This document shows positions 46,300 through 64,000 of a stretch of DNA of 64,000 nucleotides, piece after piece; the stretch's first letter is position 1; each line of letters starts with the position of its first letter. A program made the position numbers and the translations under genes. Source of the stretch: Pseudobdellovibrionaceae bacterium (lineage in GTDB: Bacteria > Bdellovibrionota > Bdellovibrionia > Bdellovibrionales > Bdellovibrionaceae); the NCBI GenBank assembly GCA_039810425.1, contig JBDHWW010000001.1, positions 32,001-96,000 of the forward strand, written 5' to 3'. Below the pieces are notes generated by a model, which was not told the DNA's origin, did not search any database, and saw nothing but the letters and a program-made list of their open reading frames with translations.

Positions 46300-47268
46300 A
46301 TGCAATCTGTCTTACCAAGTTATTCGAGTCTTGAACACAGCAATCCGGCCCATGGGGAGTATGTCGTCATTAATTGGTGTCTAGGCAACACGTGCAATTA
46401 CGCGTGTTCGTATTGCCCCGAGGGATTACACAACGCATCTACCAAGTGGCCTTCAAGCGAAACAGTCATTCAGTTTATTGACCGCGCATTAGCTCATTAC
46501 AAAGGCAAAAAACTTTACTTTGAATTTACCGGCGGAGAAGTCACCTTGTGGAAGGACCTTGTCCCCGTGGCGACTTATCTGCGCTCAGTGGGTTGTAAGA
46601 TTGGGATCATTTCCAATGGATCTCGCTCGCTAGACTTTTTTGCGAGGATTGTAGAGAGCATTGATCATATTTGTCTCAGCTTTCACCCGGAAAGTGCTGA
46701 TAAAGAGCACTTTCATTCTGTCGTGGAGTATTGTGCCGAACGCGTCCGCACACACGTAAATTTCATGATGGAAATCACGCATTTTGATTCGACCATTGAG
46801 TTTTCAAAAAGAGTTAAAGATATTCCAAATATAAGTGTTGCCGTACAGCCTCTGGTGAAGGACTTGGTAGGTGAGATCTATCCATACTCAGATGCGCAGC
46901 TGCAAATGATGAACACTCAGCACGAATATTTAGTAAAGCATATTAAATATACCAGGTCCCTTGAATACTATCGGGGCGCGATGGCCATGGTTGATGATGG
47001 CGGTCGCAAAACAGTGATGGCACCACATCGGTTTATTTCCAGTGACAACAATAGTTGGCAGGGTTGGGAGTGTTATGTGGGCCTTGAGCAGATTGTCATA
47101 GATATGAAGGGCGTTGTTTATCGAGGTTGGTGCAAGGTCGGTGGAACAATAGGGCGGATTGATGATGTGAACTTAGCACTTCCGTCAAAGCCGATTCTTT
47201 GCAATAAGGAAAGATGCCACTGTAACTTAGACATTATGACAACAAAGAAAAAGAGATTGCATGTCTGA
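46300..47268 (+). CDS. Radical SAM protein with C-terminal Cys-rich SPASM/twitch-like domain
   Basis: CNYACSYC, TGGEVT, SNG; C-terminal GWECYVG...WCKVGG...CNKERCHC. Confidence 0.92.
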   Translation: MQSVLPSYSSLEHSNPAHGEYVVINWCLGNTCNYACSYCPEGLHNASTKWPSSETVIQFIDRALAHYKGKKLYFEFTGGEVTLWKDLVPVATYLRSVGCKIGIISNGSRSLDFFARIVESIDHICLSFHPESADKEHFHSVVEYCAERVRTHVNFMMEITHFDSTIEFSKRVKDIPNISVAVQPLVKDLVGEIYPYSDAQLQMMNTQHEYLVKHIKYTRSLEYYRGAMAMVDDGGRKTVMAPHRFISSDNNSWQGWECYVGLEQIVIDMKGVVYRGWCKVGGTIGRIDDVNLALPSKPILCNKERCHCNLDIMTTKKKRLHV

Positions 47269-48289
47269 TATCAGCCCGGGGCGACCTCTCAGAGTTTACA
47301 ATCGTAGCGGAAATTTTTCCGATTTCAGCACCGATGAAATTGTCGGACGCAAAATGAATTTTTTTGAAGGCTGGAGCTGTGGCGTTGGATCTACAAACCT
47401 TTTTGTAGACATGGACGGAAATATTCATGGGGCCAGTTGCCGTGTAGGTGGAAAGCTGGGGAATATCTATGAAGATTTCGAAGTGCCAGAAAAGTGGCTT
47501 ATCTGTGAAAAGAAAACCTGTTCTTGCGGAGCCGATTTGTTTATTCCTAAAACAAAGACTCTGGAGGATCAGAGCCTTTTAGTTAAAACTAATTTTCAAA
47601 TTCCTGATCTGTCAAAACGGGTCGAAATTGATATCCCCGAAATGGTGGCGATGGAAAGGACACATGCTTCGGACCGTAAACAGGTTTATTGGGAGATTGG
47701 CCGTCGTTGTAATTATGATTGTTCATACTGCTGGCCGTTTATTCATAATAAAACAGACCGTCATAAAACTCTCACCGAATTAAAAAACGCCACGGACAAG
47801 GTCCTTTTAAAATTTGCTAAAGGGTCCAAAGTAAACTTTATAATTTCAGGTGGTGAGCCAACTTTGAATCCCGACTTTATGGAATGGGTGCGCTATATTG
47901 CTTCTCAGGGACATCATTTGAGTACGCATTCGAACGGAACACGGTTGCCTGATTACTATCGTGAATTGGTGCACTACGGAGATTTGAATCTGAGTGCCCA
48001 CTTTGAGTCTCTCGTGATGGACAAGTTCGTTCGCGTTGTAGCGGCCGTGACCGAAGAAAAAGTTAAAGTTCATAACCTAAATGTGGGTCATCTTGAGGTG
48101 AAGTTGATGATGGCCCCAGGAAAACGGGAAATGGCCCTGGAATTAGAAAGAAGGCTTCTCGCGATTCCGAACTTTAAGGAGTACTGTACTTGGGCATTTG
48201 TGCCTATTCGCAATGGTAAATTAGGCGATCAAGTCATGGAAGGTTACACCGAGGAAGATTTTAAGCTTTTCGGCGAGGGCGTCGTCTAA
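47261..48289 (+). CDS. Radical SAM protein with N-terminal SPASM/twitch-like domain (permuted order)
   Basis: N-terminal GWSCGVG...SCRVGG...CEKKTCSC, then CNYDCSYC, SGGEPT, SNG. Confidence 0.9.
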   Translation: MSDISPGRPLRVYNRSGNFSDFSTDEIVGRKMNFFEGWSCGVGSTNLFVDMDGNIHGASCRVGGKLGNIYEDFEVPEKWLICEKKTCSCGADLFIPKTKTLEDQSLLVKTNFQIPDLSKRVEIDIPEMVAMERTHASDRKQVYWEIGRRCNYDCSYCWPFIHNKTDRHKTLTELKNATDKVLLKFAKGSKVNFIISGGEPTLNPDFMEWVRYIASQGHHLSTHSNGTRLPDYYRELVHYGDLNLSAHFESLVMDKFVRVVAAVTEEKVKVHNLNVGHLEVKLMMAPGKREMALELERRLLAIPNFKEYCTWAFVPIRNGKLGDQVMEGYTEEDFKLFGEGVV

Positions 48290-48306
48290 TCAGGGAATGG
48301 CAGGGA

Positions 48307-48341
48307 AGCTCTTTCATAAGAAAGAGTTGTTCTGTTTTTTT
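48307..48341 (+). terminator. Probable terminator after radical SAM pair
   Basis: CTCTTTC-ataa-GAAAGAG hairpin then T-rich tail between convergent genes. Confidence 0.5.
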
Positions 48342-48350
48342 GTACAGCAA

Positions 48351-49700
48351 CTATTTAGCAGGCTGTTTTTTTAGATCTAAAGCTATCGAAATGAGCTCGT
48401 CGGAACCGAATCTTTTTATGATTTCCGCAGTTGCCGAAGCGGTCCCCTTTGGAAGTTTAAAGTCTTTGTAAGTTTCACGAATGGCTTGCATGAGCAAAGC
48501 CATTTCCTTTGATTTTTCAGCATAGATGGAAAGTTGCTTTATGTCAGAGGTGTACTTTGTGACGACAGCCGTTGGCCAGACCTCTGTAGGGCCTTTCAGC
48601 GTAAAGCAGGTAGAAAGCGTCATGAGATAAGAGTAAGGGTTGCTCATTTTCTCTTTCCCTAACAAATCAGTGCAGGCTTTAAAAGCCTCTTTTCTTTGAC
48701 CAAACCCGATTTGAAAACGGAGTTCTGACTTTAGCTTCGCATCAAGATGCTTTTGAAAATATGTTTCCAACGCCGGAGGCATCTTTTTCGTATAGAGCGC
48801 AGTCACTTGTTGCTTTTTTTTGTCGGCAACATAGCACTTTTGCAAAGCGACTTTTATTTTAAAATAGTACCTTTGGTAAAACTTGCTGTCTGCTGCGGTA
48901 TTAAGCAAAGGTGCTAGTTCATTTTCACAAAGCGCAAACTGACCCTTGAGGTAGTCTAGACGGGATTTGTGAACAATTATCCGATCATCACCTTTTTTTG
49001 CGATAGATTGCATCTTTTTAAAATTGGACTCATAGAGAGTGATATCATATGTACCATTCGGAAGATTGGCGATTTGATTCAGAGCTTCAAATTGATATGC
49101 GTTGCTGGGGTGTTTAGAAGCCGCCCAATCTAGTGAGGTTTTTAGCGCTTTTGAAAGTAGTCCCTGACTAATTTGAGAGTTGATGATTCCGCGCCACACC
49201 GTCCGCGCCGCCTTGCCATTTTCCATAAGCGGACTAACAAGACTGTAATAGGTCCAGTGAATTTCGGCAATATGAGGATCTTTCCGTTTACTTAAGTATT
49301 TTTTTACTTTTTTAAGCAGTGCTGATGCGCTCTTCTCGCTCAACTTAGGTTTTTTTGCTAAAAAATATTTACTCAGCTCGGGCAATTGTTTTATTGACGA
49401 AATTTCTGGAGGACTTTTGCCGATATACTGAGTGAAATCCAATTCTGTCTTATACGCGACAAGTTCAATGAGGTCACTGAGTCTTTTTTTTGTTGGCTGC
49501 TTGTCAGTATCTAAGGAGTTAACTTCTTTTTGAATCACTTGATTCAGCTCTGCTTTGTCGACAGGTTTGTTTGCGATGAGGCTCGCTTCGACACGTTCGC
49601 TAAACGTACTGGTGGTCGGTGTGGTACTCGGCTTTATAATTTGAGCGAATACCGTAGAAGCGCATATAGAAAAAACAAATAGTATGGTTAACTTTCTCAT
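48351..49700 (-). CDS. Secreted Lys-rich alpha-helical hypothetical protein
   Basis: Long ORF; Sec signal MRKLTILFVFSICASTVFA; no recognisable motif. Confidence 0.7.
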   Translation of the reverse strand: MRKLTILFVFSICASTVFAQIIKPSTTPTTSTFSERVEASLIANKPVDKAELNQVIQKEVNSLDTDKQPTKKRLSDLIELVAYKTELDFTQYIGKSPPEISSIKQLPELSKYFLAKKPKLSEKSASALLKKVKKYLSKRKDPHIAEIHWTYYSLVSPLMENGKAARTVWRGIINSQISQGLLSKALKTSLDWAASKHPSNAYQFEALNQIANLPNGTYDITLYESNFKKMQSIAKKGDDRIIVHKSRLDYLKGQFALCENELAPLLNTAADSKFYQRYYFKIKVALQKCYVADKKKQQVTALYTKKMPPALETYFQKHLDAKLKSELRFQIGFGQRKEAFKACTDLLGKEKMSNPYSYLMTLSTCFTLKGPTEVWPTAVVTKYTSDIKQLSIYAEKSKEMALLMQAIRETYKDFKLPKGTASATAEIIKRFGSDELISIALDLKKQPAK

Positions 49701-50071
49701 ATAGTCATTGGACCATAGATCCTTTTTGAAGCGCAATGGTTGGTTTCTAAAAGGGGCATATTGTGCGAAATACGAACAGAAGGCCGGTTGTGGACGTCTT
49801 TACATTACGAGCAAATTTCTCAATTAGGCGTATTGAGAAATTTAATCCGCTTTTCTTAGACTGCTGGATACTAGATAGGCGTGCCCTTATTTATTTGCTT
49901 CAAGTTCAGGACCTGTCCTTGCGGCGCACCGTTTGCATGTTGTCGGAAAATTTTTTATCACTATCCTATTGATTACATTTATTTTTTGGAAAAGTAGACC
50001 CCTGACCTTCGATTCTATCTTCTGACAGTCGCAATACGGTGACGGAGAGCGGACGGTTACTATTTTATAGG

Positions 50072-53056
50072 CTAGTTACTAAACTTAGTCCGCGCTGAAA
50101 GATCGCCAAGTATCTTTCTTGCGGGCAGGCAATATTGGCTTCCTTTACTGCATAGCCAGGCAGCTATTTTTTTTGTTGCCAAGAGAACCTCTTTTTTTTG
50201 TATATCTTCAACGGGTCTCGTAAAAGAGTTCTTTACTAAAGAGCTTTTTCTTAGATTGAGAAGTTGGTTGGTTTCGAAATTCGGAACCTCCAATGCGTCA
50301 ACTCGTCGAAGTACAAAATTAAAAAAACCAATGTCGAGAGAGCTCGAATCGACAAGTATTTTCATGGTCATAAACAAAGATTCTTCTGAAGAGCCTTCTA
50401 AAAATGCTTTTAAACCTTCAAATCTCAGGCCGGCCATTTCATCGATAAAATTGTAACTGCGTTCGACTTTAAAATACTCGTCGATCTTTTTATACGCCTC
50501 GAGCGGGCTGGTGGCATATTTTTGCGAGATCCCCATTACTTCGCTAAGTTTGGTCTTTACTTGTGGCTTGGGAGTAGAATCCTTGTTAGGCGGTTCCTTT
50601 TCTGCTGTTAAAATATCATTGAGCTTATTTGCCTCTTCGTTTCTTCCTAGGGCGCGTAGACATTTCATTGCATTAGATCGATGCCTATGTGGCATCTCAT
50701 TGAGGTTTTTGTCTGAAATATAGCTTTTTAAAAACTCAGGTAGATTGTCGTTTTCGAAAATATTCGTATACGCGCACAGCAAGAGAGAATATGACATAAT
50801 ATATTTTTTAAGTAAGATGGAAGAGTCAGGGGCCTCCATTAATTTGTCAAAAATAGAAATCACATATCCATAGTCGTGAAAGGCATGAAGACATTCTAAA
50901 CCTTGGAAAAGGTACTGCCACTGAAAGTCTTTAATTTGATTTAAATCAAGGACTGGCGGGGAAAGTTCGGAAAACTTAGAGCAAGCCCCCACTTTTAACA
51001 GCCCGGCGTTAACATCTTTTTGTAAAGCCTCAGACATCTTTTTCCGCAAGAACTGATAGGTTTGATTTTCGGTTGTTTTGAGGTTTGTTATGCATTCCCG
51101 ATCACTCTCGACATTGCATAGAAATTCCTCCAGACCTGAATTTGCGGGATATATCGTGTAGCGAAAATTCTTGTAGTAAATGGCGCGCTGTTTTTGTTGA
51201 AGGATGGAAGGAAGAAATTTCGAATCCACGTAGATTCGTTTAGCGACCGGGCTAAATTGATAAACTCCGGCCATGCCGTTAAGAGGAGTTGTTATATACT
51301 GGCCGGCAAAGTTTCTGAATGGCCAAATCCCAGTCTCGACATAATAGCCACGGTCGTCACTACTTTGATGGAGATCTTCATCAAGAATATTCTGACCTTC
51401 CGAAGGGGTGCCTGGAAGGTCAGCTAGTTTTAGAATGGTGGGTATAATATCAATAGTTCCGATATTTTTGTCGTAATTTCTTTTCTTCAATTGGGGAGAC
51501 CCAATGCGGAAGTATGCGAGTTCTGCAGATCCGCCAAATATTAAGCTTCCGCCGTGCTCAACAAATTTCCTCTTGGGGAATTTTGCCCCTAAATCCCAAA
51601 GGTTTTCTCCGTGATCAGAAAGCAAAACAACAATGGCATTTTCGTTGAGTTTGCTTTTTTCTAATTGCTCCATAACCGGATTCAGAAATTTTTTTACAGT
51701 CATATTTACAGCTGAATTATAAATGGACCTATTAAAGCGCGCCTGTATTTTCCATTGATCCACTGTCAGATTTGGTATCAATGTACCATGTTTTTCCTTA
51801 TATGAAAAAGGCACCTTGGCATGTTCTGGAAAAGACTGTTGGGGATAGTAAGGATACGGAAGAATCCCTGGCCAGTGCATGGAACACGTGTGTATAAAGA
51901 GGATCTCCGGCGTGTCGGACTCAGCAACTCTGTTTAGTTCAGTTAAGACTCGACTCGTAAATTCTGGTAGGCTGTAAGAGAAAAAAAAAGCTGAGTTGCG
52001 CGCGAGTTCCGGAACAAAAAATCTTCCCATTGGATTATTAAATAGTCCAAAAACAATTCTGTTTTTGAAAAACGTGGAAAGAACCACATTGGCTGCGGCG
52101 TAGTCTGGAGCCTCGACCTCATCGAAAATTTTTCCGGCAGAGACATTGGCATATTCCATGGTATCAGCCATAAACTTAATTCTGTAACCGTTATGTTTAA
52201 AAACGCTGAGGGGGCTGTTCGCTAGCAATGCATCAGTATCAATTGCTTCTTGCGAAAGGTTTGACCTTACGCCACTGGTGACTGGATTAAGACTTGAAAA
52301 AATTGCGGAGATTGCCGCGTGAGTTTGGGGAAGAGGAGATATAACCCTTTTAAAGCGGGTGCTGTTAGAAAGATATTTGCGCAGCGATTTTGAAGCAGCG
52401 ATGTTCAGCTCAAGTTTAGAATCCCCTCTGAGCGAATCAACGGTTATAAAGATAATTTTAGGTTTTTTAGTAGATCTAGCTATGGAAGGATTCTTTATCA
52501 CTTTTGTCTCGGGATCTAACTCTTGCCAGTAAGCAAAGTAGCAAATGATCAGAATTATGGAAACCACCGAGGTGATGCACTGTTTTGGTGTCTTTTGAGA
52601 TTTTTTTAAAAAGCTGAGCAAATATATTGCCATCAATGCAAACGCAGGAAGCCAACGGATCCAAGGATAATCGAAAAAACACAAGTTTTTGAGGGCGAGG
52701 CTTACCCAGGGCATTTCATCGTAAACTTGAGGGTACTTGATGGCAATGAACAGGCAACCATAGGTCAGCCATAAAAAGTACTGGGTCTTCCGGTGCTTGA
52801 CGAAAAAAATCACTTCGAAGGTCCGGAGCAGGCATCCAAAACTAACATGGATCAAGAAGACTCTAAAAAAGAAAAACGCAACTGGGTAAATTATTTCAAT
52901 ATTGTTTGAGCTGGTTAAGCTGCCGACTCTCGTTGTAGTTAAAACTGAAAAACAAATATATGCGGAAAAAATCATTTCTACAATGAAGGTGATGGCGGAA
53001 AACTTAAACGCGCTTTCGAAACTCCCATCAGCTTTTAAGAAAAAACGTCTCATCAT
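50072..53056 (-). CDS. Membrane-anchored sulfatase-fold (alkaline phosphatase superfamily) hydrolase/transferase with C-terminal extension
   Basis: About 5 N-terminal TMs, IFITVDSLR, SPLPQTH, HWP, LSDHGE, EHG, DIIPTIL. Confidence 0.82.
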   Translation of the reverse strand: MMRRFFLKADGSFESAFKFSAITFIVEMIFSAYICFSVLTTTRVGSLTSSNNIEIIYPVAFFFFRVFLIHVSFGCLLRTFEVIFFVKHRKTQYFLWLTYGCLFIAIKYPQVYDEMPWVSLALKNLCFFDYPWIRWLPAFALMAIYLLSFLKKSQKTPKQCITSVVSIILIICYFAYWQELDPETKVIKNPSIARSTKKPKIIFITVDSLRGDSKLELNIAASKSLRKYLSNSTRFKRVISPLPQTHAAISAIFSSLNPVTSGVRSNLSQEAIDTDALLANSPLSVFKHNGYRIKFMADTMEYANVSAGKIFDEVEAPDYAAANVVLSTFFKNRIVFGLFNNPMGRFFVPELARNSAFFFSYSLPEFTSRVLTELNRVAESDTPEILFIHTCSMHWPGILPYPYYPQQSFPEHAKVPFSYKEKHGTLIPNLTVDQWKIQARFNRSIYNSAVNMTVKKFLNPVMEQLEKSKLNENAIVVLLSDHGENLWDLGAKFPKRKFVEHGGSLIFGGSAELAYFRIGSPQLKKRNYDKNIGTIDIIPTILKLADLPGTPSEGQNILDEDLHQSSDDRGYYVETGIWPFRNFAGQYITTPLNGMAGVYQFSPVAKRIYVDSKFLPSILQQKQRAIYYKNFRYTIYPANSGLEEFLCNVESDRECITNLKTTENQTYQFLRKKMSEALQKDVNAGLLKVGACSKFSELSPPVLDLNQIKDFQWQYLFQGLECLHAFHDYGYVISIFDKLMEAPDSSILLKKYIMSYSLLLCAYTNIFENDNLPEFLKSYISDKNLNEMPHRHRSNAMKCLRALGRNEEANKLNDILTAEKEPPNKDSTPKPQVKTKLSEVMGISQKYATSPLEAYKKIDEYFKVERSYNFIDEMAGLRFEGLKAFLEGSSEESLFMTMKILVDSSSLDIGFFNFVLRRVDALEVPNFETNQLLNLRKSSLVKNSFTRPVEDIQKKEVLLATKKIAAWLCSKGSQYCLPARKILGDLSARTKFSN

Positions 53057-53076
53057 ACTTCCGTTGAAATAATTTT

Positions 53077-53823
53077 TCAGAGGTGTTCAGTCGCATTTTC
53101 GGGTGAGATTAAATGCTCGATATCTGCTGGTCCCTTGACGCTCACCATGAAAGTATATCTATCTGTTTTAGAGAGATTAATGACTGCATGTCTATAGCCG
53201 GTATTGAGAAAGTAGGCAATTCCCGGGCGCAAGTAGAAAGAATGAATTTCTTTTTTAACCCAAAATATATTCAAGCATTCTGGAGTGGAAATTATCGGTA
53301 GGATGATTCGGACTGCGTACGACGGGTCATAGTCAATATGTGGGGCAATACTCGCACCCGCGGGCAAGCGAACAAGTCTGATCCGAGTTGCTTCACCCTT
53401 TAACGGAGCAAGAATTTTGTCGAAAAGGAAACGGTGTTGCTCGTAAATCAGCGACTTCTTCGAGTAAGTTGCTTCATTGAACGGAGAGTTTGATTGAGCC
53501 GACAATTGCTTTCTCGTGCGAACGCCCTTTGAAACCCCCTCGGCTCTCAGTGTGTCATGGGCTTCCTTGCAACTGCTAAGGCTTACATTGTTTTGTTCGA
53601 TTTCCGACTCAGTTAAGGCCACTTGAAAAAAGTTTTCGTAAAAGACATCTTCAGTAAGTTGATGATTGATGCCACAAAGGCTTTTGTTGGCTTCAATGAC
53701 GGAAGTAAATTGATTTTGCAATTGATGAACGCAGTTTTTAAGCTCGGCTAGAGTCTCTTCCCCAAGGCAGAGATGATTAAGAACTTCACATGGTGGAAGA
53801 AGATGCTTAAGGCGCTTTTCCAT
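53077..53823 (-). CDS. AspH-like 2OG-Fe(II) dioxygenase
   Basis: RIRLVRL..GASIAPHID...RIILPI...NTG.RHAVIN....DR. Confidence 0.82.
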   Translation of the reverse strand: MEKRLKHLLPPCEVLNHLCLGEETLAELKNCVHQLQNQFTSVIEANKSLCGINHQLTEDVFYENFFQVALTESEIEQNNVSLSSCKEAHDTLRAEGVSKGVRTRKQLSAQSNSPFNEATYSKKSLIYEQHRFLFDKILAPLKGEATRIRLVRLPAGASIAPHIDYDPSYAVRIILPIISTPECLNIFWVKKEIHSFYLRPGIAYFLNTGYRHAVINLSKTDRYTFMVSVKGPADIEHLISPENATEHL

Positions 53824-53825
53824 AC

Positions 53826-54530: not shown

Positions 54531-54700
54531 TCTTAAAAACTAGATCACGAGGGATGGAATATTTAAAACGATAACTCGTCGCACACTGTCTTTTAATGAG
54601 ACAGTTGGATTGAAAGTCGTTGGTATGGAAAGCTAGCCTGAAAACAAACGATTTGGAGTTTTGTCTTGATTGATGATGTCTTAACTGTTAAAAATAAGCA

Positions 54701-55189: not shown

Positions 55190-55203
55190 TAGCTTAGTTT
55201 CAA

Positions 55204-56919
55204 ATGTGTGGGATTGTTGGCGGGTTTGATCCAGACTACAGAATTGAGAAAATCAACTGTGCGTTGAGAGCCATCCATGGCAGAGGTCCGGATCGTTCTC
55301 AGACCTATAAAATCGACTCATCCCGTTTTTTGGCTTTTAATCTTCTAGGGATTCACTCAAAAAATTCAAACAAGCTTGTGCAACCATTTCACAACGAAGG
55401 GACCACCCTCAGTGTCTGTGTGAACGGGGAAATTTATAATTATAGAGCCCTCCGTTCTGATCTTGAAAAAAAAGGATGTGTCTTTAAGTCAGAATCCGAT
55501 TGTGAAGTGGTTCTGCACGGCCTTGACTACTATGGAACGGATTTTTTCTCGTATTTGAATGGCGAATATGCCGTGGTCGCCTATTTTCACCGAACCAGGA
55601 AGTGGATTTGCGCCGTGGATCATGTCGGCACCAAACCACTTAAGTACTACTTAGACCGGGAAAGGTTCCTGATAGCCTCATCGGCAGAAGCGCTAGGATG
55701 TTTGGGGATTTCTTTGACGCTCGATGAGGGGGCGTGTCTATTTTCTTTCCATACTGCTTGCCTGCCCCGGGGAAAGACGTTGTTTTCAAGTATTTGGACG
55801 ATTCCCCCGGGACATTACTTAGAGGTGGATGAGCATTTGAATCAACGTATTCAGCCGTATACCACTGATTATTTGGGAGATGATATTGCACAAACCCTGG
55901 AAGAAGCCATTGAAAGTTCTGTGCGAGTTCGTGTCCCAAGTCACTTTAAACTGGCGCTTTCTCTGAGTGGGGGGTTGGACTCAAGCCTCTTGGCTCTTTT
56001 TTTGCGGAAGCTTGATGTCGACTTTGAATGTTTTAGCGTTGATTTTGAGGGAAGTCCGTTTTCGGAGCGTGAAGACATTCAAGCATTTTGCCGAACTCAT
56101 GGATTAAGCACGGAGTATGTTCCCATTTTTCAACAAGATCTGATTCGTGAGTTCCCGAGATCTGTTAAGAACGCAGAGAATCTTGTGATTAACGCCCACT
56201 CCGCCGGTAAGCTTATTCTGAATCAAAAAATTTCTGAGGCGGGGTATAGAGTTTGCCTTACCGGCGATGGGGCCGATGAGTTTTTCTGGGGATATTCGCA
56301 TTTTCACCAAAGTGATGGGTATCAGTTTGTACGTGATAGTACTCAGATCGGCTCGCGTTACACGCAGATTTTGGATTCCCGTTGGCATTCAATGCTTTTG
56401 AGTTCGAGCCTGTTCGAGGACTATCGAAAGACTCATATAAACCCCACGGAACAAGAGCTCTATAATAATTATTGGTTCAATGAATACGGTTTGAAAATCC
56501 TTGGCGACGCGCAGGCAGCCACACAAAGTCTCGAGTATCGGTATCCTTTTATCGATCGAAGGATTATTCAGAACGCTCGTGTGTTGCAAATGACTCGGCA
56601 AGACAACGCGCCATCAAAGCGCATACTAAGAAAAATATGTGAGACTTACGATGTCCACAGGGCTCAAACGCCAAAACGTCCTTTTACCGCGCCGCTATTC
56701 ACAAAAGAATGGCTGCCACTTTTTGAGGAATTTGTTTTTGTAGACAGCTTTAGAAATCTGGGGTTATTTCAATCTGATAGGCTGAAAGAGTATATTTTGC
56801 GGCTTCGGTTTCATCATTTGGAGGACATGCCCAAGGCGAGTTCCGTTCTTTTGACTCAAATCCTTTCCCTGGGTATTTTGAATCATGAATTCTGTATTGC
56901 ACGAGAAGCGAAATTATAA
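55204..56919 (+). CDS. Asparagine synthetase B-like glutamine amidotransferase
   Basis: MCGIVG, RGPD, NGEIYN, SGGLDS, TGDGADE..WGY, LEYRYPF.D. Confidence 0.92.
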   Translation: MCGIVGGFDPDYRIEKINCALRAIHGRGPDRSQTYKIDSSRFLAFNLLGIHSKNSNKLVQPFHNEGTTLSVCVNGEIYNYRALRSDLEKKGCVFKSESDCEVVLHGLDYYGTDFFSYLNGEYAVVAYFHRTRKWICAVDHVGTKPLKYYLDRERFLIASSAEALGCLGISLTLDEGACLFSFHTACLPRGKTLFSSIWTIPPGHYLEVDEHLNQRIQPYTTDYLGDDIAQTLEEAIESSVRVRVPSHFKLALSLSGGLDSSLLALFLRKLDVDFECFSVDFEGSPFSEREDIQAFCRTHGLSTEYVPIFQQDLIREFPRSVKNAENLVINAHSAGKLILNQKISEAGYRVCLTGDGADEFFWGYSHFHQSDGYQFVRDSTQIGSRYTQILDSRWHSMLLSSSLFEDYRKTHINPTEQELYNNYWFNEYGLKILGDAQAATQSLEYRYPFIDRRIIQNARVLQMTRQDNAPSKRILRKICETYDVHRAQTPKRPFTAPLFTKEWLPLFEEFVFVDSFRNLGLFQSDRLKEYILRLRFHHLEDMPKASSVLLTQILSLGILNHEFCIAREAKL

Positions 56920-57472
56920 GCTGCTGACCTTAAGCAAAGACAATAAAGCGGAGATCTTGTCACTTCTAAGGCAAGAGCTTTACAAGAAATTTGAAGTTCA
57001 AAGAGATGAAGACCTTCCAGAGAACTACTCGAATGTAAAGCCATGGTCTCTTCTGAGAATGATTGAAGACGATGCGATGGATATTTATCAGCTTGTCTAT
57101 GTTAGTGGCAAATTTTGGGCGAGTTGCGGTGGTATCATTCGGAACTTACCAAATGGGGAAAAGATTTACCAAGGGGCTTTTAGAACCCTCAGTCGCTCTC
57201 ATTGCAATATATATAAAGGATTCGGAACAAAACCTTACATTGCGGGTCTGTGCTTGCCGATCCAAATTGAAAGAGCGAAAAAATTAGGTTGTGATAAGTT
57301 TGTTTTGTCTTTTAATTTAAGCAATACAAGGTTGTATAATATTGTAACCAAATATTTTAGTAAAAGAACTTTTTTGGGTGTGGATCAGATTTTAAAAAAC
57401 TTTACGGCGACGTCAACGCCGATGACTTTCAATGGAGTGGAACAGTGGTTACTGGAAATGAAATTGAAATAA
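56885..57472 (+). CDS. Hypothetical protein, possibly GNAT-fold
   Basis: Overlaps asnB-like stop; QIERAKKLGC..FVLSFN..N.RL resembles GNAT C-terminal motif. Confidence 0.5.
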   Translation: MNSVLHEKRNYKLLTLSKDNKAEILSLLRQELYKKFEVQRDEDLPENYSNVKPWSLLRMIEDDAMDIYQLVYVSGKFWASCGGIIRNLPNGEKIYQGAFRTLSRSHCNIYKGFGTKPYIAGLCLPIQIERAKKLGCDKFVLSFNLSNTRLYNIVTKYFSKRTFLGVDQILKNFTATSTPMTFNGVEQWLLEMKLK

Positions 57473-57996
57473 CGGCGGCCACTCGTGGCGCTTTAGCAGA
57501 AATATTTTCGCAGCAATATTCAGCTTTAGAAAACAACTCGCAGAAATTATTTTGCTTCAGCGAGGGTGATTATGCTCTCGTTCAAGAGTACTATAACAAG
57601 ATTTCATACGAACATCTCAATATCGTTTATAACCATCAAGGGCAGCCCATCATGTCGGTCTTTACCTTTTCCGGGAAAAGGTTTTTACGAATGGAGCGGC
57701 TACTCGGACAAAAGGATCTTAAGGTCATTGGCATAAGAATTTTTAAGAACTCCATCGTCCCTATGCATGTAGATCCAAACTATGGGTCCACCGGCAGAGA
57801 AAACCCAGTTTTGTCCTTAGTTGTGGCAGGGAGTGAGAACGGCCGAGTCTATTTTTCAAATAGAAAAGATGGTTCAAAAAAAGTGATGATTCCCGGTCTT
57901 TCACAGTTTGTGATGTGTCCTACGGAAGTTGAGCATGGCGCTAATTCCGCGGATCAAGATATGGACATCATTCAAATTATGGTTGACCCAATTTAA
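57445..57996 (+). CDS. 2OG-Fe(II)/cupin-fold dioxygenase-like protein
   Basis: IRIF....VPMHVD...LSLVV...EHGAN...IQI (HxD...H). Confidence 0.6.
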   Translation: MVTGNEIEITAATRGALAEIFSQQYSALENNSQKLFCFSEGDYALVQEYYNKISYEHLNIVYNHQGQPIMSVFTFSGKRFLRMERLLGQKDLKVIGIRIFKNSIVPMHVDPNYGSTGRENPVLSLVVAGSENGRVYFSNRKDGSKKVMIPGLSQFVMCPTEVEHGANSADQDMDIIQIMVDPI

Positions 57997-58081
57997 TGTA
58001 GGGAAGTGAGACAGCCCAAGCACAGATCGGCGGAAAATTGGGGAAGCGTGAACTGCTTTACTATTTAGTTATAGGTTATCA

Positions 58082-58879
58082 ATGAAAAAACACGATTTTT
58101 TAAAAAAATACTTGGATTCCGATGGTGTCGTTAACCCCGACATCTTGGATGTAGACGACGAGCTCTTAGATATTGGCTGGTTGCCGATTTCCAACACAGT
58201 GATTGAACCGGACAACTGGGACCTGTTTTGGCGTCTTTGGAATCAGGAAAAAATCACGTTACGTCCGAAAAACTATGAAACAATCACCTGGCAGACCCTG
58301 TGTATCTGGAAGGCTTCATACCTCTCTGAAGAAGATGTGCAAAAGATTTACCCGCAGAAGGTTGTTGATTGGGAAAAGCATTTTCCCAAAATGTTGTCTC
58401 AAATTAGAGCGCTTATGCCTTTTGAAGAGATTTGGAAAATCACTTTAGCGGAAAGCATGAACCGGGTGCCTGCCCATGTGGATCTTCCCCTAGATCCACA
58501 ATATCAAATGCTCTATCCCTGGCCGAATTCTGTTCGTGTATTACTTTATGATGAAAACAAAGCCCCGACATTTTATTTAACCCAATGGCCACCGTATCTT
58601 TTAGAAGAAGGGAAAATAAAAAATTCTTTTAGTATGAAAGAATGGGGTTTCCTAGAGGATCCAAAGGCTGAAGATAAATGCTATGTGGCTTTACCGAACC
58701 ACTCGAATGCGTTTGTATATGCCAACGGGCCCCTCCTGCATGGCTCCGACTATCATGGGAGATCTAAAATTTTAGTTATGATATGGGGAAGGCCAAGCCC
58801 AGAAAAGTGGAAACAGAAGCTGAAAAATCTTAAAGAAGAGTTTCCCCAATACCGTGATCTTGGCTGCCTTTCTTATTGA
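58082..58879 (+). CDS. 2OG-Fe(II)/AspH-like dioxygenase-like protein
   Basis: VPAHVD...VRVLL...NAFVY.N...LHGSD....KILVMI (HxD...H...K). Confidence 0.62.
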   Translation: MKKHDFLKKYLDSDGVVNPDILDVDDELLDIGWLPISNTVIEPDNWDLFWRLWNQEKITLRPKNYETITWQTLCIWKASYLSEEDVQKIYPQKVVDWEKHFPKMLSQIRALMPFEEIWKITLAESMNRVPAHVDLPLDPQYQMLYPWPNSVRVLLYDENKAPTFYLTQWPPYLLEEGKIKNSFSMKEWGFLEDPKAEDKCYVALPNHSNAFVYANGPLLHGSDYHGRSKILVMIWGRPSPEKWKQKLKNLKEEFPQYRDLGCLSY

Positions 58880-58957
58880 TAGGTCAGTCCGTGAAAGGAT
58901 CTCATTTAGCACATGGGTTGACTTTACGGTCTTTTGTGTAAAAATCTATTCGTCAAT

Positions 58958-61323
58958 ATGAGGCTTTTCAAACATTTTACTTCGAATCAAAATATCAATT
59001 CTGCCCTATTTCCAGCAGTGTCCTTTATTGCTTTCTCGACGTTGCTATATGAAGTTTTACTATCTCGAATCTTAGCAGTAACAGTTTGGTATCACTTTGG
59101 TTTTGCAATTGTTTCCTTGGCTATGCTGGGTGTTTCCCTGGGCGCGATACTTTGCCCACGATTTAAAAACAAAATGTCTGTCATGGCGGGTCTTTTTGCC
59201 ATATTTGCGCTTGTTTCTATTGTGGTTCACCTTCAAATACAGCTTCCACCGGCAACAAATCAGATCTATTTGGGGTCGGCAATTTTAGGCCAGCTTTTTA
59301 TTTTTTTTTAACGTTTATATTTTCAGGAATTTGTCTCGGCGCAGTTTTTGTTCGATTCACCCAAGACCTTCATAAAATTTATTTTTTTGACATGGTCGGC
59401 GCGTCCTTAGGGTGTCTTTGCCTGATTCCACTGCTTTATATGTTTGATGGGCCGTCTCTTATTTTCTTGGTCTTTTCTTTCGCGTGCCTGGCGGCATCGG
59501 GATTTGCGATTGTGGAGAAGAGAAAGCGTGCGCCTTTTATGTGGCTGGCCATGATGGTTGTGGGAGTTTGCTTATTCTACGTTGATCAGCAAAAGGAGCT
59601 TTTGAGCATCACGAAAATTAAGTCGTATATGTTAGGAGAGTTTCAGACAGCCGAGGAACCGAAGGTTTTCGAAAAGTGGAGTCCCGTGTCGCGCGTCGCC
59701 GTCTTTGGACCTGTTTTCGGAGGTCGAGATTTAGTATTGACGTCAGATGGCGGAGCTCCGACTCTTCTTAGAAAGTTTGATGGAAACTACTCTAAGATTG
59801 CTGAAAGAAAGACGGACTGTCGTCAAATAGGACAGCGGCTCTCGTCGGGGGGAAATGTTCTTGTGATTGGATCCGCCGGAGGCACGGACGTTCTTATGTC
59901 CTTGGCGCTTGGGAAAGAAAAAATCACCGCAGTGGATATCAACCCGGTCACTGCGGATCTCGTCAAGGGGCGATACTCCAACTATATTGGAAATATCTTT
60001 CATGATCCAAGGGTCACCTTGCATGTTCAAGATGGCCGGAATTTCGTTGCATCAACTAAAGAAAATTATGATCTTATCCATCTTACAATGGTGGATAGCT
60101 GGACGGGGGCATCTGCAGGAGCCTTTGTTTTTAATGAAAATACTCTTTATACAAAAGAAGCTATTAAGGAGTTCACCCAGCACTTGAATCCAAATGGAAT
60201 ACTGTCAATCACCCGCTACTCGTATTGGAGCGAGGGGTTGCGTTTAGTGAATACATTGGTCGAGTCCTTGGAGGAATCCGGCATTAAAAATTATTCCCAA
60301 AGGCTCTTGGTGGTTTTGGAAAAGGATAAAGACTTTCCGCGGGTTACTATTTTATTAAAAAATGGCGTCTACTCAGCCACTGAACTAAAGAGCTTTTCCA
60401 ATTTAACCCAAGATTGCGGAGGTGCGGTGGTTTTCGCTTCAAATGTGATCACAAATCTTGATGATCTAAATTGGGCCTCCCAAAACATCAGACGCTTTTT
60501 AGCTATCGCTGAGAATGCACAGGCAAGAAGCGAGTTCGTCGGATCTTATGATAAGAATATTGAGGCGTGCACAGACGATAAACCTTTTTTCTTTTTTACA
60601 ACGAAGTTCTCCAATCTTGTAGGAGATCCCCAAGAACATGCCGCCAGAAGGTATTCCATTCTAAGCCTTTTTATTCTTTTAGGAGTCGCACTTTGTTATT
60701 CAGTAGTGATGGCTTTTATCACGGCGAAAAATTTAAAAAAACAAGACAGCGCACCGACAAAAAAATTTAGTATTTGGTATTTCGCCTTGGTGGGCGCGGG
60801 TTTTATGATAATCGAAATTTCTTTTACTCAAAAATTGACGGCGCTTTTGGGGCACCCGGCCTGGTCTTTTTTAGCGGCATTGACGAGCTTTTTGTTCTCT
60901 TCCGCTTGCGGCTCTTACTTCTCAAAAAATGCAAAATCTCTTCAGAAGATTTTAGCCACAGTCGTCTTGATAATTTTCATATACCAAGGATTTCTATACG
61001 ACCAGATGAACTCGTGGATGGCGCTTTCGTTGTGGATGAAATTTGTTTTGGCCATTGTGTTTATCTTTCCACTCGGGTTCTTCATGGGCATGTGCTTTCC
61101 GATGGGAATTCGTTTGCTGGTGCGAAACCGGCCTGAAGGGACCGCCGCAGCCTGGGCCCTCAATGGCGCGTTTTCAGTCGTGGGATCTGTAACGGCTATT
61201 GCAGTCGCCATTTTTTTAGGATTTAAGGCCACCTTGGTTGTAGGTGGTACGCTATATTTAGTGGCGATTGCGATGGTTTGGAATTCCCGCTTAGATTCAA
61301 GCGGGAAGTTATTCGTAAAGTGA
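58958..61323 (+). pseudogene. Membrane spermidine-synthase-like/class I SAM-dependent transferase split by a frameshift at T9 (59301-59309)
   Basis: First part LLYEVLLSRI..V..WYHF.F..VSLAMLG; the -1 frame continues F.G..L......IYFFDMVGASLG, VLVIGSAGGTD, VDINP, DGRNFV, TDDKPFF, AWALNG. Confidence 0.8.
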
Positions 61324-61872
61324 AAACACGAGATGAATGCGATCCTCATTTAATGAGGCGTTCATTGCGGTGTGAAAGACTCCAGTGTCAACTTTATAAA
61401 GCCGTCCAACTTCAGGGAGCTGTTCTAATCCTCCTTCGGAGGTGACATAAAAAGCAGAGCTATTGGTCAAAATTGGAATATGCAGCCGGCATGGAAAATC
61501 GTCTTGATGCCACGAGTAGCATGTTTTAGGTGCGAGCCTTAAGATGCGCACCCTTCCGATATTACCATAATTTAATTGTTTTACCGTCTCTAAAACAGAT
61601 CCTAAATAAGTTCCCTCAATCAGGGGACTATTGTGAACGAACTGGGATTCATGAGCCCACCATCGATTGGTTTTATAGTCGTATAAGCTGCCAACTCCAT
61701 CGGTCAGTAGTTCGTGTGGGTCCACTGGAAGGTGATGTTCTCGGTGCCTTAGGGATATTTGATTTGTTTGCGAAAAAGAGGGGCATTTCTTTGCAAGATT
61801 CTGAATGCACTCATAGAGGTTTGTTGCGTCGAAAATATGCTCTAAAGGGCTTACGGCTGAAAATTTCACCAT
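61309..61872 (-). CDS. AspH-like 2OG-Fe(II) dioxygenase
   Basis: GRVRILRL.PKTCYSWHQD...RLHIPI.TN...DTG..HTAMN....DRIHLV. Confidence 0.85.
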   Translation of the reverse strand: MVKFSAVSPLEHIFDATNLYECIQNLAKKCPSFSQTNQISLRHREHHLPVDPHELLTDGVGSLYDYKTNRWWAHESQFVHNSPLIEGTYLGSVLETVKQLNYGNIGRVRILRLAPKTCYSWHQDDFPCRLHIPILTNSSAFYVTSEGGLEQLPEVGRLYKVDTGVFHTAMNASLNEDRIHLVFSLYE

Positions 61873-62042
61873 TGGGTGAATTTCATGCTAATCTGGAAAC
61901 GAGGCAAGCTTAAAATACCAAGCACTTTATTTGTACTTTTCATGATGAGATATTCGCTTGCGATGTATCCTGGGTGACGGACGGATTTTAAAACATAAGA
62001 ACAACGCTGCACGCCAGATATGGCCTGACATAAAAAATCATT

Positions 62043-63056
62043 CTACCTAAGTAAAGGACCGATAAATTTTCTGCTAGTGGGATCTCTCATTTTATAAAGC
62101 ACACCCTCGAGGTAATAGTGGCCATAGGCAAATAAAAACATGACCGCATTCATAATTTTATATGCGAGAAGATCTGGAGCCTTTCCTCTTAGAAAGAATG
62201 CGGCGATTCCCGCATGTGCGTTCAGTATAAAGGACAATATTAGAAATACGGCGATGCTTGTCGTCAGGACCGACATCGGTAAAGGCCCGGCCGCCGATGT
62301 ATTTTTTCTGATTTTTTGCGCCACCATGTAGTAGTCAAAACCATGAGAGCCGGCGATGGCCATACCAGCTATAGAGGAGTAAAAAGTGAGTGGGAATAGT
62401 AAAGCTCTAGTCATGAATAAACACTTATACTTATTTCGAAAATTAGATCCTATCAAATAGAGACCTATCAGTAAGTGCGGGACAAAAACTCCGAGTCTTA
62501 TCATGCGGGTGGTATTTGAATCGTCAAAGTACCTATTGTTCATTGCCAAGAGGCAGACTTGAATAAATAGAAACACCTCGAAAATACGAAAAAGCCGCTT
62601 TTCAAAGACAATATGTCTGGCGGAAGTGGGGGAAGCCATATCATACATGGTAGCAATCCCGACGACTTGCCTCCAGGCATGAAATACCGGTATGAATATC
62701 CAGGCAAACTTTAGAAGAACCCAAATATCTTTGGAAATCTTTTCGGGGGTAATAAACTTCAAAATAAAAACAAGTGACGCAAGGCAAACCAAAACAAAAG
62801 ACAGAAATGCTAAAAAAAGACGGTCTTTAAGTTTCTCGCTCAGCCAGGACTTCATTTCGGGAAGTGTAAAAAGAAAATAATACGAAATCACAACGTGAAT
62901 GGAATTACCCAAAACAAGCTCGACAATAATTTTAAATTGTCTAGCAGAGTCTACGCTCAAAAAATTTGGCTGATTAACTTGAGTTAGGGCCCCTACTAGG
63001 CACAGAATAACAAGCAAAAATGACCAGAATTCCAACCGTCGCTCAAAAAGTTGCAT
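62043..63056 (-). CDS. Polytopic membrane protein with four helix-embedded His motifs
   Basis: About 9-10 TMs; GNSIHV, FHAWRQ..G, SHGFDY, GHYYLEG. Confidence 0.7.
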   Translation of the reverse strand: MQLFERRLEFWSFLLVILCLVGALTQVNQPNFLSVDSARQFKIIVELVLGNSIHVVISYYFLFTLPEMKSWLSEKLKDRLFLAFLSFVLVCLASLVFILKFITPEKISKDIWVLLKFAWIFIPVFHAWRQVVGIATMYDMASPTSARHIVFEKRLFRIFEVFLFIQVCLLAMNNRYFDDSNTTRMIRLGVFVPHLLIGLYLIGSNFRNKYKCLFMTRALLFPLTFYSSIAGMAIAGSHGFDYYMVAQKIRKNTSAAGPLPMSVLTTSIAVFLILSFILNAHAGIAAFFLRGKAPDLLAYKIMNAVMFLFAYGHYYLEGVLYKMRDPTSRKFIGPLLR

Positions 63057-63081
63057 GCGGTTTAATTTTTAAGGTAATGTG

Positions 63082-63981
63082 ATGCATATGCAAACAAAAA
63101 AATTGTTCGTCATCGCTATACTGTTGATGAGCTCCTCTTCCTCAAACTCGTATTATGAGAAGGCGTCTAAGTCCGGTCCCGGGGTCATGAACGGCATCAA
63201 ATTCGATGACTATAAGGATTTCGATAAAAAATGGAAACTTGTGACAGTGCGCTACCGTCAAGACAGCCATGAGATGAGATTCACATATGCAAATGATATC
63301 GCGTGGAAAGAGATGCAGTCTTTGAAACCCAACTACAACGACGGGGCAATCTTTGCTAAAATAGGATTTATAACGGAGCAGGATCCTGCTTTTCCGAGTT
63401 CCGAGGTTCCATCTGGAACAAAAAGGTATCAGTTTATGGTCAAGGATAAGAACAAGTATAAATCGACAGAAGGGTGGGGCTATGCCCTATTTACGGACGA
63501 GGGAGGTCTTTTTAAGGAGGATTTAGCGGCGAAAACCGTTGCCTGTGCTGCCTGTCATGCATTAGTGCCAGAAAGAAACTTCGTTTTTTCAAGGCCAATG
63601 AGACTTCAATTTGAGAGCGTCTTATCTCAATTGAATAGCAAGAAAATTCTGGATGAAAATTTACCATTTATTGAGAAGCCAGCGAAAGAATTTTCAAAGG
63701 GCTTTCAAGACCATTTAAGCGTAGGTGCAACTCTGGTGAACTCTTTGGACGGTCCACTCAAGAAAAACGCGTTCTCAGGAACACTTGATGAAATTATACC
63801 CGTACTGTTAGAAAAGGCGAAAGCGTCGGGAAGGTCCGCCACACTTTATTTGAATGATAAAAATTATTCCCTGGTAAGCCCACACTTAAAAACTGCAGAT
63901 TGTGAAGATGAAAAGACCCAATTTTCCATCGTAGTCATGTTTAATCAAAAATTAGTTAGGAAAACATCAATTTGCAAGTAG
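63082..63981 (+). CDS. Cytochrome P460 family protein with C-terminal extension
   Basis: Signal peptide; YAN, GAIFAK, FMVKD, GWGYALF, CAACH, FVF. Confidence 0.82.
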   Translation: MHMQTKKLFVIAILLMSSSSSNSYYEKASKSGPGVMNGIKFDDYKDFDKKWKLVTVRYRQDSHEMRFTYANDIAWKEMQSLKPNYNDGAIFAKIGFITEQDPAFPSSEVPSGTKRYQFMVKDKNKYKSTEGWGYALFTDEGGLFKEDLAAKTVACAACHALVPERNFVFSRPMRLQFESVLSQLNSKKILDENLPFIEKPAKEFSKGFQDHLSVGATLVNSLDGPLKKNAFSGTLDEIIPVLLEKAKASGRSATLYLNDKNYSLVSPHLKTADCEDEKTQFSIVVMFNQKLVRKTSICK

Positions 63982-64000
63982 CCGCGAATACTTTGAAATA

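Follow-up and report, generated by a model that had tools for sequence, protein, structure and literature searches.

The 64,000-nt stretch of Pseudobdellovibrionaceae DNA analyzed here (the window) ends inside a single insertion, of which it holds the first, variable tailoring half. Together with the glycosyltransferase (GT), GT-C and pilin genes that follow, these tailoring genes likely build a chemically edited surface glycan, probably attached to the co-encoded pilins, a reading that we favor tentatively on the basis of sequence.

Boundaries and composition of the insertion

Congener alignment places a 32,468-bp insertion at G000:C1:78194-110661 (G000 is the genome analyzed), with an OPT gene on one side and an FAD-oxidoreductase gene on the other, and positions 46300 to 63981 of the window (17.7 kb) are the first stretch of this single ~32.5-kb insertion. 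The flanks in congener G005 match C1:73264-78193 and C1:110662-114588 and bracket a single 647-aa gene. In the four congeners whose two flanks share a contig, the site spans 3 to 10 kb, versus ~35 kb in G000, and the 32.5-kb insertion was not found at the matching site; the marker glycosyltransferase GT516 (see below) was found in 0 of 5 congeners. The insertion site is a hotspot, so passenger genes are possible.

The first-pass annotation had described this DNA as AT-richer and arranged in short alternating transcription units, and both descriptions hold: the GC content is 0.424 for 46300-63981 versus 0.472 and 0.483 for the flanks, and the in-window orientation runs ++, ----, +++++++, --, +. 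In the rest of the genome, 0.3% of 958 windows of this size have a GC content as low, and that of the whole insertion is 0.428. A prophage remnant was considered and rejected: 19 proteins yielded no phage structural or integrase genes and PHROG matches only for the radical SAMs, the desaturase and AsnB, and rSAM1 is not nested among phage sequences.

Tailoring genes within the window

The in-window features are as follows (window coordinates, strand).

46194-64000, strand., in-window part of the insertion, which extends a further 14.7 kb beyond the window
46300-47268, +, rSAM1, radical SAM core with a Cys-rich auxiliary domain on its C-terminal side (PF04055)
47261-48289, +, rSAM2, paralog of rSAM1 with the auxiliary domain before the core (twitch-type order; PF04055)
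48351-49736, -, 461-aa protein, hydrophobic segment at the N terminus (signal bearing), no family match above the cutoff
50072-53056, -, membrane-anchored sulfatase-fold protein (PF00884, four hydrophobic segments, motif PQTHAAISAIFS)
53077-53823, -, AspH-type Fe/2-oxoglutarate dioxygenase 1 (PF05118, 26.0 bits, cutoff 22.6)
53826-54530, -, membrane fatty-acid-desaturase-family protein (PF00487, His boxes)
54701-55189, +, small protein, Tat-like RRxF signal plus predicted ABM-like domain (Atlas 0.95)
55204-56919, +, AsnB-type glutamine amidotransferase (PF00733, PF13537, TIGR01536)
56885-57472, +, putative acyltransferase (GNAT-like), no family match
57445-57996, +, HxD...H cupin-like protein, motif only, with a 67% paralog on G000:C7
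58082-58879, +, HxD...H cupin-like protein, motif only; 2 of 20 desaturase loci have a weak homolog
58934-61323, +, membrane spermidine-synthase-like/SAM-binding gene (PF01564)
61309-61872, -, AspH-type dioxygenase 2 (AspH2; PF05118, 21.4 bits, just under the cutoff)
62043-63056, -, 4-His multipass membrane protein (Atlas 0.93 to 0.94)
63079-63981, +, cytochrome P460-family protein (PF16694, CxxCH)

Family profiles and motifs recover the desaturase, AsnB, sulfatase-fold, membrane spermidine-synthase-like and cytochrome P460 proteins that had been named from the letters, and both radical SAMs match PF04055 with CxxxCxxC. The four HxD...H dioxygenases stand in part: 2 match PF05118, one of them just below the cutoff, and only the motif marks those at 57445-57996 and 58082-58879. 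The genes for the GNAT-like and 4-His membrane proteins are present, the former with no Pfam, NCBIfam or PHROG match and the latter with no family match. Absent from the earlier gene list are the Tat-signal ABM-like protein (54701-55189), the 461-aa protein (48351-49736) and a frameshift near 59301-59309. This frameshift, at a T9 run, breaks the spermidine-synthase-like gene, and the letters of the run are identical in the contig of run X1, possibly the source of the same DNA.

The sulfatase-fold protein has a Thr at the nucleophile position, where sulfatases carry the Cys of CxPxR. A formylglycine sulfatase was rejected, since (C/S)xPxR is absent and PQTHAAISAIFS stands at the matching place in an alignment by eye; the protein is likely a phospho-substituent transferase. 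AsnB scores 266.9 bits with TIGR01536 (cutoff 267.1). The putative acyltransferase has 59% identity to a syntenic gene of genome G188 and, in a profile comparison, weakly matches a phage family (probability, 26%), and a 23% homolog of the 461-aa protein in the same genome adjoins 4-His, arylsulfotransferase-like (ASST-like) and methyltransferase-like genes. The Tat-signal protein resembles ABM clusters with an Atlas score of 0.95 (153/256 features), and similar small Tat-signal proteins occur in 10 of 20 desaturase loci. The Atlas neighbors of the 4-His protein are unnamed and beta-carotene-monooxygenase-like clusters (0.93 to 0.94).

A glycosylation core beyond the window

It had been claimed that the island lacks any glycosyltransferase, which is true only to position 64000: the next 14.7 kb hold five GT2s, a GT-C protein and three pilin-like genes. 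What had looked like a tailoring set without a core thus continues, in the same insertion, into a glycosylation core of GT2s, a putative lipid-phosphate sugar synthase and GT-C (L001:1 is window position 62001).

L001:1972-3132, +, ASST-like gene (PF14269), starting in the window at 63972-64000
L001:3144-4175, +, second 4-His protein, 343 aa, of one family with that at 62043-63056
L001:4334-5164, +, pilin-like protein, 276 aa, no Glu5
L001:5174-5824, +, pilin-like protein, 216 aa, no Glu5
L001:5839-7389, +, GT516 (GT2; PF00535)
L001:7320-8288, -, GT322 (GT2; PF00535)
L001:8248-9510, -, 420-aa protein of no assigned family
L001:9405-10811, -, pilin-like protein, 468 aa (PF07963, TIGR02532)
L001:10828-12327, -, GT-C (GT-C fold matches of the model)
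L001:12282-13259, -, UDP-glucuronate decarboxylase (E value of 4.6e-76 to PDB 4gll)
L001:13256-13903, -, MT215, putative methyltransferase
L001:13877-14770, +, GT297 (GT2; PF00535)
L001:14770-15666, +, GT298 (GT2; PF00535)
L001:15518-16684, -, GT388 (GT2; PF00535)

PF00535 is matched five times in this half. The GT-C model (pLDDT 82) has GT-C fold matches, its top 20 VIA-align rows being GT-C enzymes or GPI-transamidase subunits, and PF13231 is found in 3 of 19 homologs. Foldseek ranks ArnT first; the top five of the fold search lie within 1.3 Z, a spread in which protein and lipid/glycan acceptors are indistinguishable. GT297 is structurally related to Dol-P-Man synthase and ArnC, and its best profiles are AglJ/Dol-P hexose transferase models, below the cutoff; it fits a polyprenyl-phosphate sugar synthase at the family level only. 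MT215 has no Pfam or PDB match and is labeled a putative methyltransferase from a motif. An N-terminal CxxxCxxC is present in 8 of 49 GT516 homologs (profile probability, 69%). No MATE/Wzx flippase was matched among 33 scanned proteins, and no GtrA-type flippase lies in the island, the sole PF04138 match being on G000:C94. An O-antigen or capsule cluster was rejected, as the scanned island proteins include no Wzx/Wzy, ABC exporter or initiating phosphoglycosyl transferase. Among the proteins scanned, none matches a Wzy_C/PilO or TfpW profile in Pfam or NCBIfam. In the direction of transcription, GT-C immediately precedes the 468-aa pilin gene, and three of the eight pilin-motif genes of G000 lie in the island.

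Conservation of the two halves

The glycosyl block recurs across the order, where its marker, GT516, is found in 65 of 200 genomes, among them the single-contig genome G061. At 40 loci from 36 of these 65 genomes, the neighbors of GT516 include GT322 (32), GT388 (21), GT298 (18), GT-C (17), GT297 (15), MT215 (12) and radical SAMs (17). Within the order, GT516-positive genomes hold 25 of 25 AspH2, 28 of 28 desaturase and 24 of 25 4-His matches, against family-stratified expectations of 16, 19 and 14, in counts that include kin and are not independent; the co-occurrence spans four families. The sulfatase-fold gene follows GT516 less well (7/10), all three tailoring markers are missing in 18 of the 65 GT516-positive genomes, and outside the order the desaturase link is weaker, with GT516 in 3 of 23 desaturase-positive genomes. 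The desaturase cassette is far from the GT block in many genomes; physical linkage of the two halves is seen in G129, G207, G094 and G074 and, outside the order, in G352, G367 and G424.

Pilin-motif genes occur at 10 of 17 GT-C loci, compared with 2 of 23 other GT516 loci and 4 of 121 20-kb windows of G000. The motif was not seen in the stretch read at the remaining 7 GT-C loci, nor in the 20 kb read at 8 GT516 loci outside the order. Radical SAMs are found at 2 of 17 GT-C loci versus 15 of 23 others, indicating that the two locus types are mostly separate.

The radical SAM pair

Cysteines C258, C278, C301, C306 and C308 of rSAM1 are invariant among 103 homologs, and rSAM1 residues 251-320 correspond to rSAM2 residues 33-101. 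The rSAM1-rSAM2 pair lies 4 kb from the glycosyl block in G034 and adjoins GT516 in loci L037, L045 and L046. The top fold match of the rSAM1 model (pLDDT 94) is BlsE, a cytosylglucuronate decarboxylase (PDB 7vob; Z 17.9, rmsd 3.9, 270 aligned), whose substrate is described as a sugar acid (PMC3715490). However, BlsE shares only 16% identity with rSAM1 and is tied with SkfB (17.5) and viperin (17.0), so it assigns no substrate to rSAM1. Both radical SAMs match two known families weakly, far under their cutoffs, and neither assignment was kept: viperin NF038283 (54.8 and 48.4 bits, cutoff 180) and twitch-domain radical SAM NF033640 (17.3 and 31.6 bits, cutoff 170). Since the closest solved structures share just 16 to 19% identity with this family, its chemistry is likely new whichever acceptor holds.

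Proposed pathway and alternatives

The first-pass annotation had proposed decoration of an envelope molecule, or of a protein that the predatory bacterium exports, and our analysis supports this. From the observed gene content, folds, single insertion and co-occurrence, we infer each reaction and the acceptor. The UDP-glucuronate decarboxylase and GT2s would make and join sugars in the cytoplasm, rSAM1, rSAM2 and MT215 would edit a sugar or nucleotide-sugar, and the desaturase, oxygenases, amidotransferase and putative acyltransferase may supply acyl or amide substituents. GT297 would place a sugar on polyprenyl phosphate, a flippase encoded elsewhere in the genome would turn the lipid-linked sugar over, GT-C would transfer it in the periplasm, and the sulfatase-fold and ASST-like proteins may add charged groups on the outside. 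The co-encoded minor pilins are the likeliest acceptor.

The hotspot might instead house two systems: the GT/pilin block would glycosylate some target, and an independent route through the desaturase, AspH oxygenases, AsnB, Tat protein and putative acyltransferase would lead to a small molecule or a modified acyl-amide lipid. G188 keeps the window order from the desaturase and Tat protein through AsnB to the acyltransferase-like and cupin genes (33 to 62% identity), the cassette and the GT block often lie apart, G379 carries the cassette but yields no GT516 match, and just 7 of 80 phage loci contain it. We nevertheless consider this somewhat unlikely: within the order the cassette is almost confined to GT516-positive genomes, in four families, it is joined to GT genes in at least 7 other genomes, and no carrier protein or acyl ligase is matched in the island. 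Slightly less likely still is that the same glycan chemistry serves lipid A, LPS or another envelope glycolipid through GT-C, with the pilin genes as mere neighbors. Lipids can be substrates of desaturases and of AspH-family enzymes (LpxO/OlsC), the likeness to ArnT and of GT297 to ArnC and Dol-P-Man synthase fits, and so do the 7 of 17 GT-C loci without a pilin motif in the stretch read and the wide spread of three-component systems (PMC11127046). Against it, Pmt4 and AglB score as high as ArnT against the GT-C model, and pilin genes are strongly enriched beside GT-C.

Direct, RiPP-like modification of a protein or peptide, be it the Tat-exported small protein or an unseen precursor, seems improbable. 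AspH enzymes can hydroxylate proteins, SkfB, EpeE, SuiB and PqqE score close to BlsE against rSAM1, and the small Tat protein is recurrent as well as divergent; yet the rSAM1 model has no leader-binding domain, with only about 20 residues before the core, the short open reading frames of the intergenic gaps include none that looks precursor-like by eye, no peptidase or ABC exporter is matched in the island, and the constant neighbors are GT genes. Horizontally acquired genes brought together by chance, sharing no function, would suit the low GC content, mixed orientation, one frameshifted gene and hotspot site. This is the least probable reading and is already largely refuted by synteny: the genes do co-occur in the same gene order in other genomes, and their order and co-occurrence are conserved across families and in phages.

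Relation to known systems and to phage loci

The edited-glycan reading has a close counterpart, by gene context, in TfpW, which glycosylates pilins in Pseudomonas aeruginosa (10.1101/2020.04.19.049825), as both pair a membrane transferase of lipid-linked sugar with type IV pilins. The TfpW target is described as the major pilin and its sugar as plain D-arabinofuranose, whereas the island has minor-pilin-like genes, five GT2s, radical SAMs and oxygenases. Like three-component systems (polyprenyl-P sugar synthase, flippase and GT-C), it has GT297 and a GT-C-fold protein, with a nucleotide-sugar enzyme adjoining; unlike them, it has no flippase in the locus, a predicted acceptor only and many added tailoring enzymes. 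Pilin glycosylation is reported to protect P. aeruginosa from pilus phages (10.1101/2020.04.19.049825, 10.1101/150227), and Bdellovibrio predation to need type IV pili at the prey-contacting pole in a role described as unclear (PMC12428579). A variable glycosylation island by minor-pilin genes in about one-third of the genomes sampled from the order would offer a testable entry point to the study of prey range and of how phages are avoided.

A link to large tailed phages had been suggested in the first reading, and radical SAM homologs do occur in phage loci: ~50%-identical relatives of the pair stand behind tail-like genes of large phages, and direct homologs of rSAM1, rSAM2, MT215 and the desaturase are found in phage loci of similar layout. 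In contrast to the island, the 80 phage loci analyzed have no GT516, GT-C or pilin homologs, and glycosyltransferase identity could not be shown for the families neighboring them. The host recognition cluster of pelagimyophages and cyanomyophages is described as a variable island with glycosyltransferases and exchangeable radical SAM cassettes by tail-fiber genes (PMC7029224), and jumbo phages have sugar/2OG-oxygenase clusters (PMC7824862); host-surface modification is proposed in both sources, whose accounts of these clusters mention no Bdellovibrio counterpart. It is possible, though doubtful, that a single old, modular fiber-decorating system is common to giant aquatic phages and predatory Bdellovibrionota, in which radical SAMs, some of them fused to glycosyltransferases, and an interchangeable cassette of oxygenase, desaturase and amidotransferase would place strain-specific edited glycans on minor pilins of the predator pilus tip and on phage tail fibers, tuning prey range or shielding the fiber. 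With GT-C and pilins co-encoded, the island would put the radical SAM islands that uncultured giant phages carry into a bacterial context. rSAM1 itself clusters with bacterial sequences, separate from 39 viral ones.

Extent of the island and its insertion site

Every ORF named in the first-pass annotation is present in the window (contig C1:32001-96000), and the low GC content that it reported for 46300-63981 was confirmed: the value is 0.424, the flanks have 0.472 and 0.483, and only 0.3% of 958 same-size windows elsewhere in the genome are equally low. Low GC persists as far as about position 110,700 of contig C1. The 14.7 kb past the window end encodes five GT2 glycosyltransferases (named below by number, GT516 among them) and three pilin-like proteins. 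It also has genes for an ASST-like protein, another 4-His protein, a membrane protein of 499 aa, a homolog of UDP-glucuronate decarboxylase (E 4.6e-76) and a putative methyltransferase (MT215). Four of the five congeners carry both genes flanking this region on a single contig, separated by 3-10 kb; the flanks in one congener (G005) align up to C1:78193 and resume at C1:110662, a single unrelated gene lying between them, and GT516 is found in none of the five. Since the flanks lie close together in these congeners and all five lack GT516, the annotated stretch and the glycosyl/pilin block constitute one 32,468-bp insertion. The earlier description of the stretch as having no glycosyltransferase was an artefact of the window edge, and the stretch is not scaffold-less. 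The locus is a genuine variant of a glycosylation island, and it is conserved.

The insertion site is variable. Gene content in the gap between the FAD-oxidoreductase and OPT/rpsB genes differs across the congeners (L207-L211: G005, G001, G006, G004 and G002), marking a hotspot. No repeats were found at the island ends in the source genome (G000), nor a tRNA at the end inside the window; the tRNA-Phe(GAA) at 28967-29042 has no relation to the island. The named close homologs belong to Bdellovibrionales genomes, so the source host is taken to be a Bdellovibrio-type predator.

Family scans recovered two radical SAM enzymes (rSAM1 and rSAM2), a desaturase, AsnB, the sulfatase-fold protein, a spermidine-synthase-like membrane protein and cytochrome P460. 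Among the four proposed HxD...H dioxygenases, two were identified as AspH-type. The other two gave no family match, nor did the "GNAT" or the membrane protein with four His; these four are named from motifs or the Atlas.

Recurrence of the window genes

Of 60 relatives, 3 have strong rSAM1 orthologs, with rSAM2 coming next in every case; among 13 loci read (15 before two duplicates were left out), rSAM1 precedes rSAM2 in 10. One genome (G188) repeats part of the window's gene order at 33-62% identity, from the desaturase through the Tat protein and AsnB to the acyltransferase-like and cupin genes. Of the loci around 20 desaturase matches, at least 19 have AspH-type genes, at least 10 Tat-signal small genes, at least 8 4-His genes and at least 3 AsnB-type genes. 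Matches to AspH2, the desaturase and the 4-His protein fall in GT516-positive genomes in 25 of 25, 28 of 28 and 24 of 25 cases, against 16.1, 19.3 and 13.8 expected (family-stratified, 200 genomes), counts whose p-values overstate the association because kin are not independent and for which the sulfatase-fold gene, with 7 of 10 matches in such genomes, is only a partial control. AspH2, the desaturase and the 4-His gene are all missing from 18 of the 65 GT516-positive genomes. The window and glycosyl halves are physically joined in G129, G207, G094 and G074.

In 300 genomes of the phylum outside the order, GT516 occurs in 8 and the desaturase, mostly as weak matches, in 23, with just 3 in common. 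The strongest of these desaturase matches (G352) lies 17 kb from GT516 inside a full cassette; in G367 and G424 too, GT516 stands together with radical SAMs, MT215 and a small protein with a Tat signal, and G379, which has no GT516 match, carries the cassette. Pilins are found in 0 of these 8 GT516 loci (20 kb read each).

Homologs of cytochrome P460 (40-52% identity) are found again close to 4-His genes at L196:6664-14440 (G163), L195:7759-11365 (G074) and L198:3124-10494 (G129). G163 has no GT516 match, and two 4-His genes there flank a gene pair that we take to resemble an MBOAT/SGNH pair.

Relatives in large tailed phages

The suspected link to large tailed phages was supported. A single-protein scan of viral contigs matched nothing, and an alignment scan with rSAM1 matched 263 viral stretches; no match was obtained by tblastn of rSAM1 against 50,697 cultured-phage records. 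The best 80 of the 263 show 44-51% identity, on contigs of up to 525 kb, and their loci contain rSAM2 (61), MT215 (23), AspH (9), the desaturase (7) and AsnB-type synthetase domains (7), with no homologs of GT516, GT-C (the 499-aa transferase) or pilin and none detected by the Tat protein profile. In about half of these 80 loci, tail-like genes and four neighboring families (F4, F5, F3 and F2) precede rSAM1 in a fixed succession; several of the system's bacterial loci contain F2 homologs at 40-43%. F6-F8 are presumably tail-like from their sequence style, with one Peptidase_G2 match as their sole family support. Glycosyltransferase identity was not supported for F2, F3 and F5 (no Pfam or PDB match, profile probability <5% to the island GT2s); they are not counted as such because just DxD-like motifs are kept.

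A quick tree, for which thinning left 39 of 72 viral rows, drawn from the best 80 of 263, places bacterial and viral rSAM1 on opposite sides of one branch (SH-aLRT 92), with G000 among the bacterial sequences. Given this separation, rSAM1 seems to belong to an old family common to both, not to a recently arrived prophage fragment; the tree is unrooted and without a clade test, so no transfer donor is claimed. One viral record (L088), with a name in the style of giant-virus MAGs, has its genes ordered just as in the tailed-phage-like loci and may be a phage contig that was misbinned.

Two studies describe phage islands with variable sets of glycosyltransferases (PMC7029224, PMC7824862), the former placing them next to tail fibres and reporting radical SAM cassettes that are exchangeable, and passages of two others treat phage glycosyltransferases without this system (PMC12619734, PMC12801897). 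Full-text searches covering the main text of openly available papers listed no description of the Bdellovibrionales locus; supplements of PMC7029224 and PMC7824862 may hold these gene families.

Glycosyl block and radical SAM enzymes

Of 200 genomes sampled from the order, 65 have a GT516 ortholog. We read 40 loci from 36 of these 65, picked for long contigs, and found GT322 in 32, GT388 in 21, GT298 in 18, GT-C in 17, GT297 in 15, MT215 in 12 and radical SAMs in 17. Loci with GT-C have pilin-motif genes in 10 of 17 and radical SAMs in 2 of 17; loci without it have radical SAMs in 15 of 23 and pilins in 2 of 23 (pilin-motif background in G000, 4 of 121 windows). Both arrangements are combined in G000, G034 and L040.

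The model of the 499-aa protein (pLDDT 82) has a GT-C glycosyltransferase fold, with ALG12, Pmt4, ALG9, AglB and ArnT as best matches (Z 16.4-17.7); neither GT-C nor MT215 has a PDB sequence match. GT297 is assigned from its sequence to the polyprenyl-phosphate sugar synthase type. CxxxCxxC is kept in the N-terminal domain of 8 of 49 GT516-like proteins; a profile of seven of them matched the rSAM1 family at 69% probability and the full-set profile did not, so that GT516 is likely, if not firmly, a degenerate radical SAM-GT2 fusion. No flippase is encoded in the island, and one GtrA-family gene sits on another contig.

rSAM2 is a paralog of rSAM1 with the auxiliary domain moved to the front (core-aux versus aux-core; window 46300-48289), and the two may form a heterodimer. 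The tandem is kept in bacteria and many phages. The rSAM1 model (pLDDT 94) has BlsE, SkfB and viperin as nearest folds, tied within 1 Z, and its fold therefore assigns no substrate. The substrate of BlsE is a sugar acid; this would fit the island's UDP-glucuronate decarboxylase but proves nothing.

A candidate pathway and its alternatives

What might such an island make? Our leading proposal, held tentatively, is a surface-glycan pathway in which a glycan would be built and radically or oxidatively edited in the cytoplasm and loaded on polyprenyl phosphate; GT-C would then move it in the periplasm, with the minor-pilin-like proteins encoded alongside as the likeliest acceptors. Published work reports pilins glycosylated by a lipid-linked-sugar transferase, TfpW, in Pseudomonas (10.1101/2020.04.19.049825), three-component GT-C systems (PMC11127046) and pili as essential for predation (PMC12428579).

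A rather unlikely alternative is that the desaturase/AsnB cassette yields a separate acyl-amide product. Somewhat less probable still is a lipid or LPS acceptor. Direct modification of a peptide seems improbable. Least credible is the mosaic of genes that the first-pass annotation had allowed for, as the window genes recur together, in order, in other genomes.

Minor observations

At L192:8590-13825 in G132, a genome on one contig and without a GT516 match, the best homolog of the sulfatase-fold protein adjoins two pilin-like genes and is possibly a pilin phospho-substituent transferase. The spermidine-synthase-like gene (window 58934-61323), with weak homologs in just 2 of 200 genomes, is split by a frameshift at a T9 run near 59301-59309, which could reflect a pseudogene or slippage-based phase variation. 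A contig from run X1, which may be where this DNA comes from, has identical letters there; scattered short contigs in runs X2, X3 and X5, 99% alike, were not taken as evidence of expression. Lower-GC genes elsewhere in G000 include paralogs of the 183-aa cupin (C7:639-1187, 67%), of the sulfatase-fold protein (C87:3559-6258, 26%) and of the 4-His protein (C6:87098-88099, 26%), the last of them near a GT2-like gene and membrane proteins.
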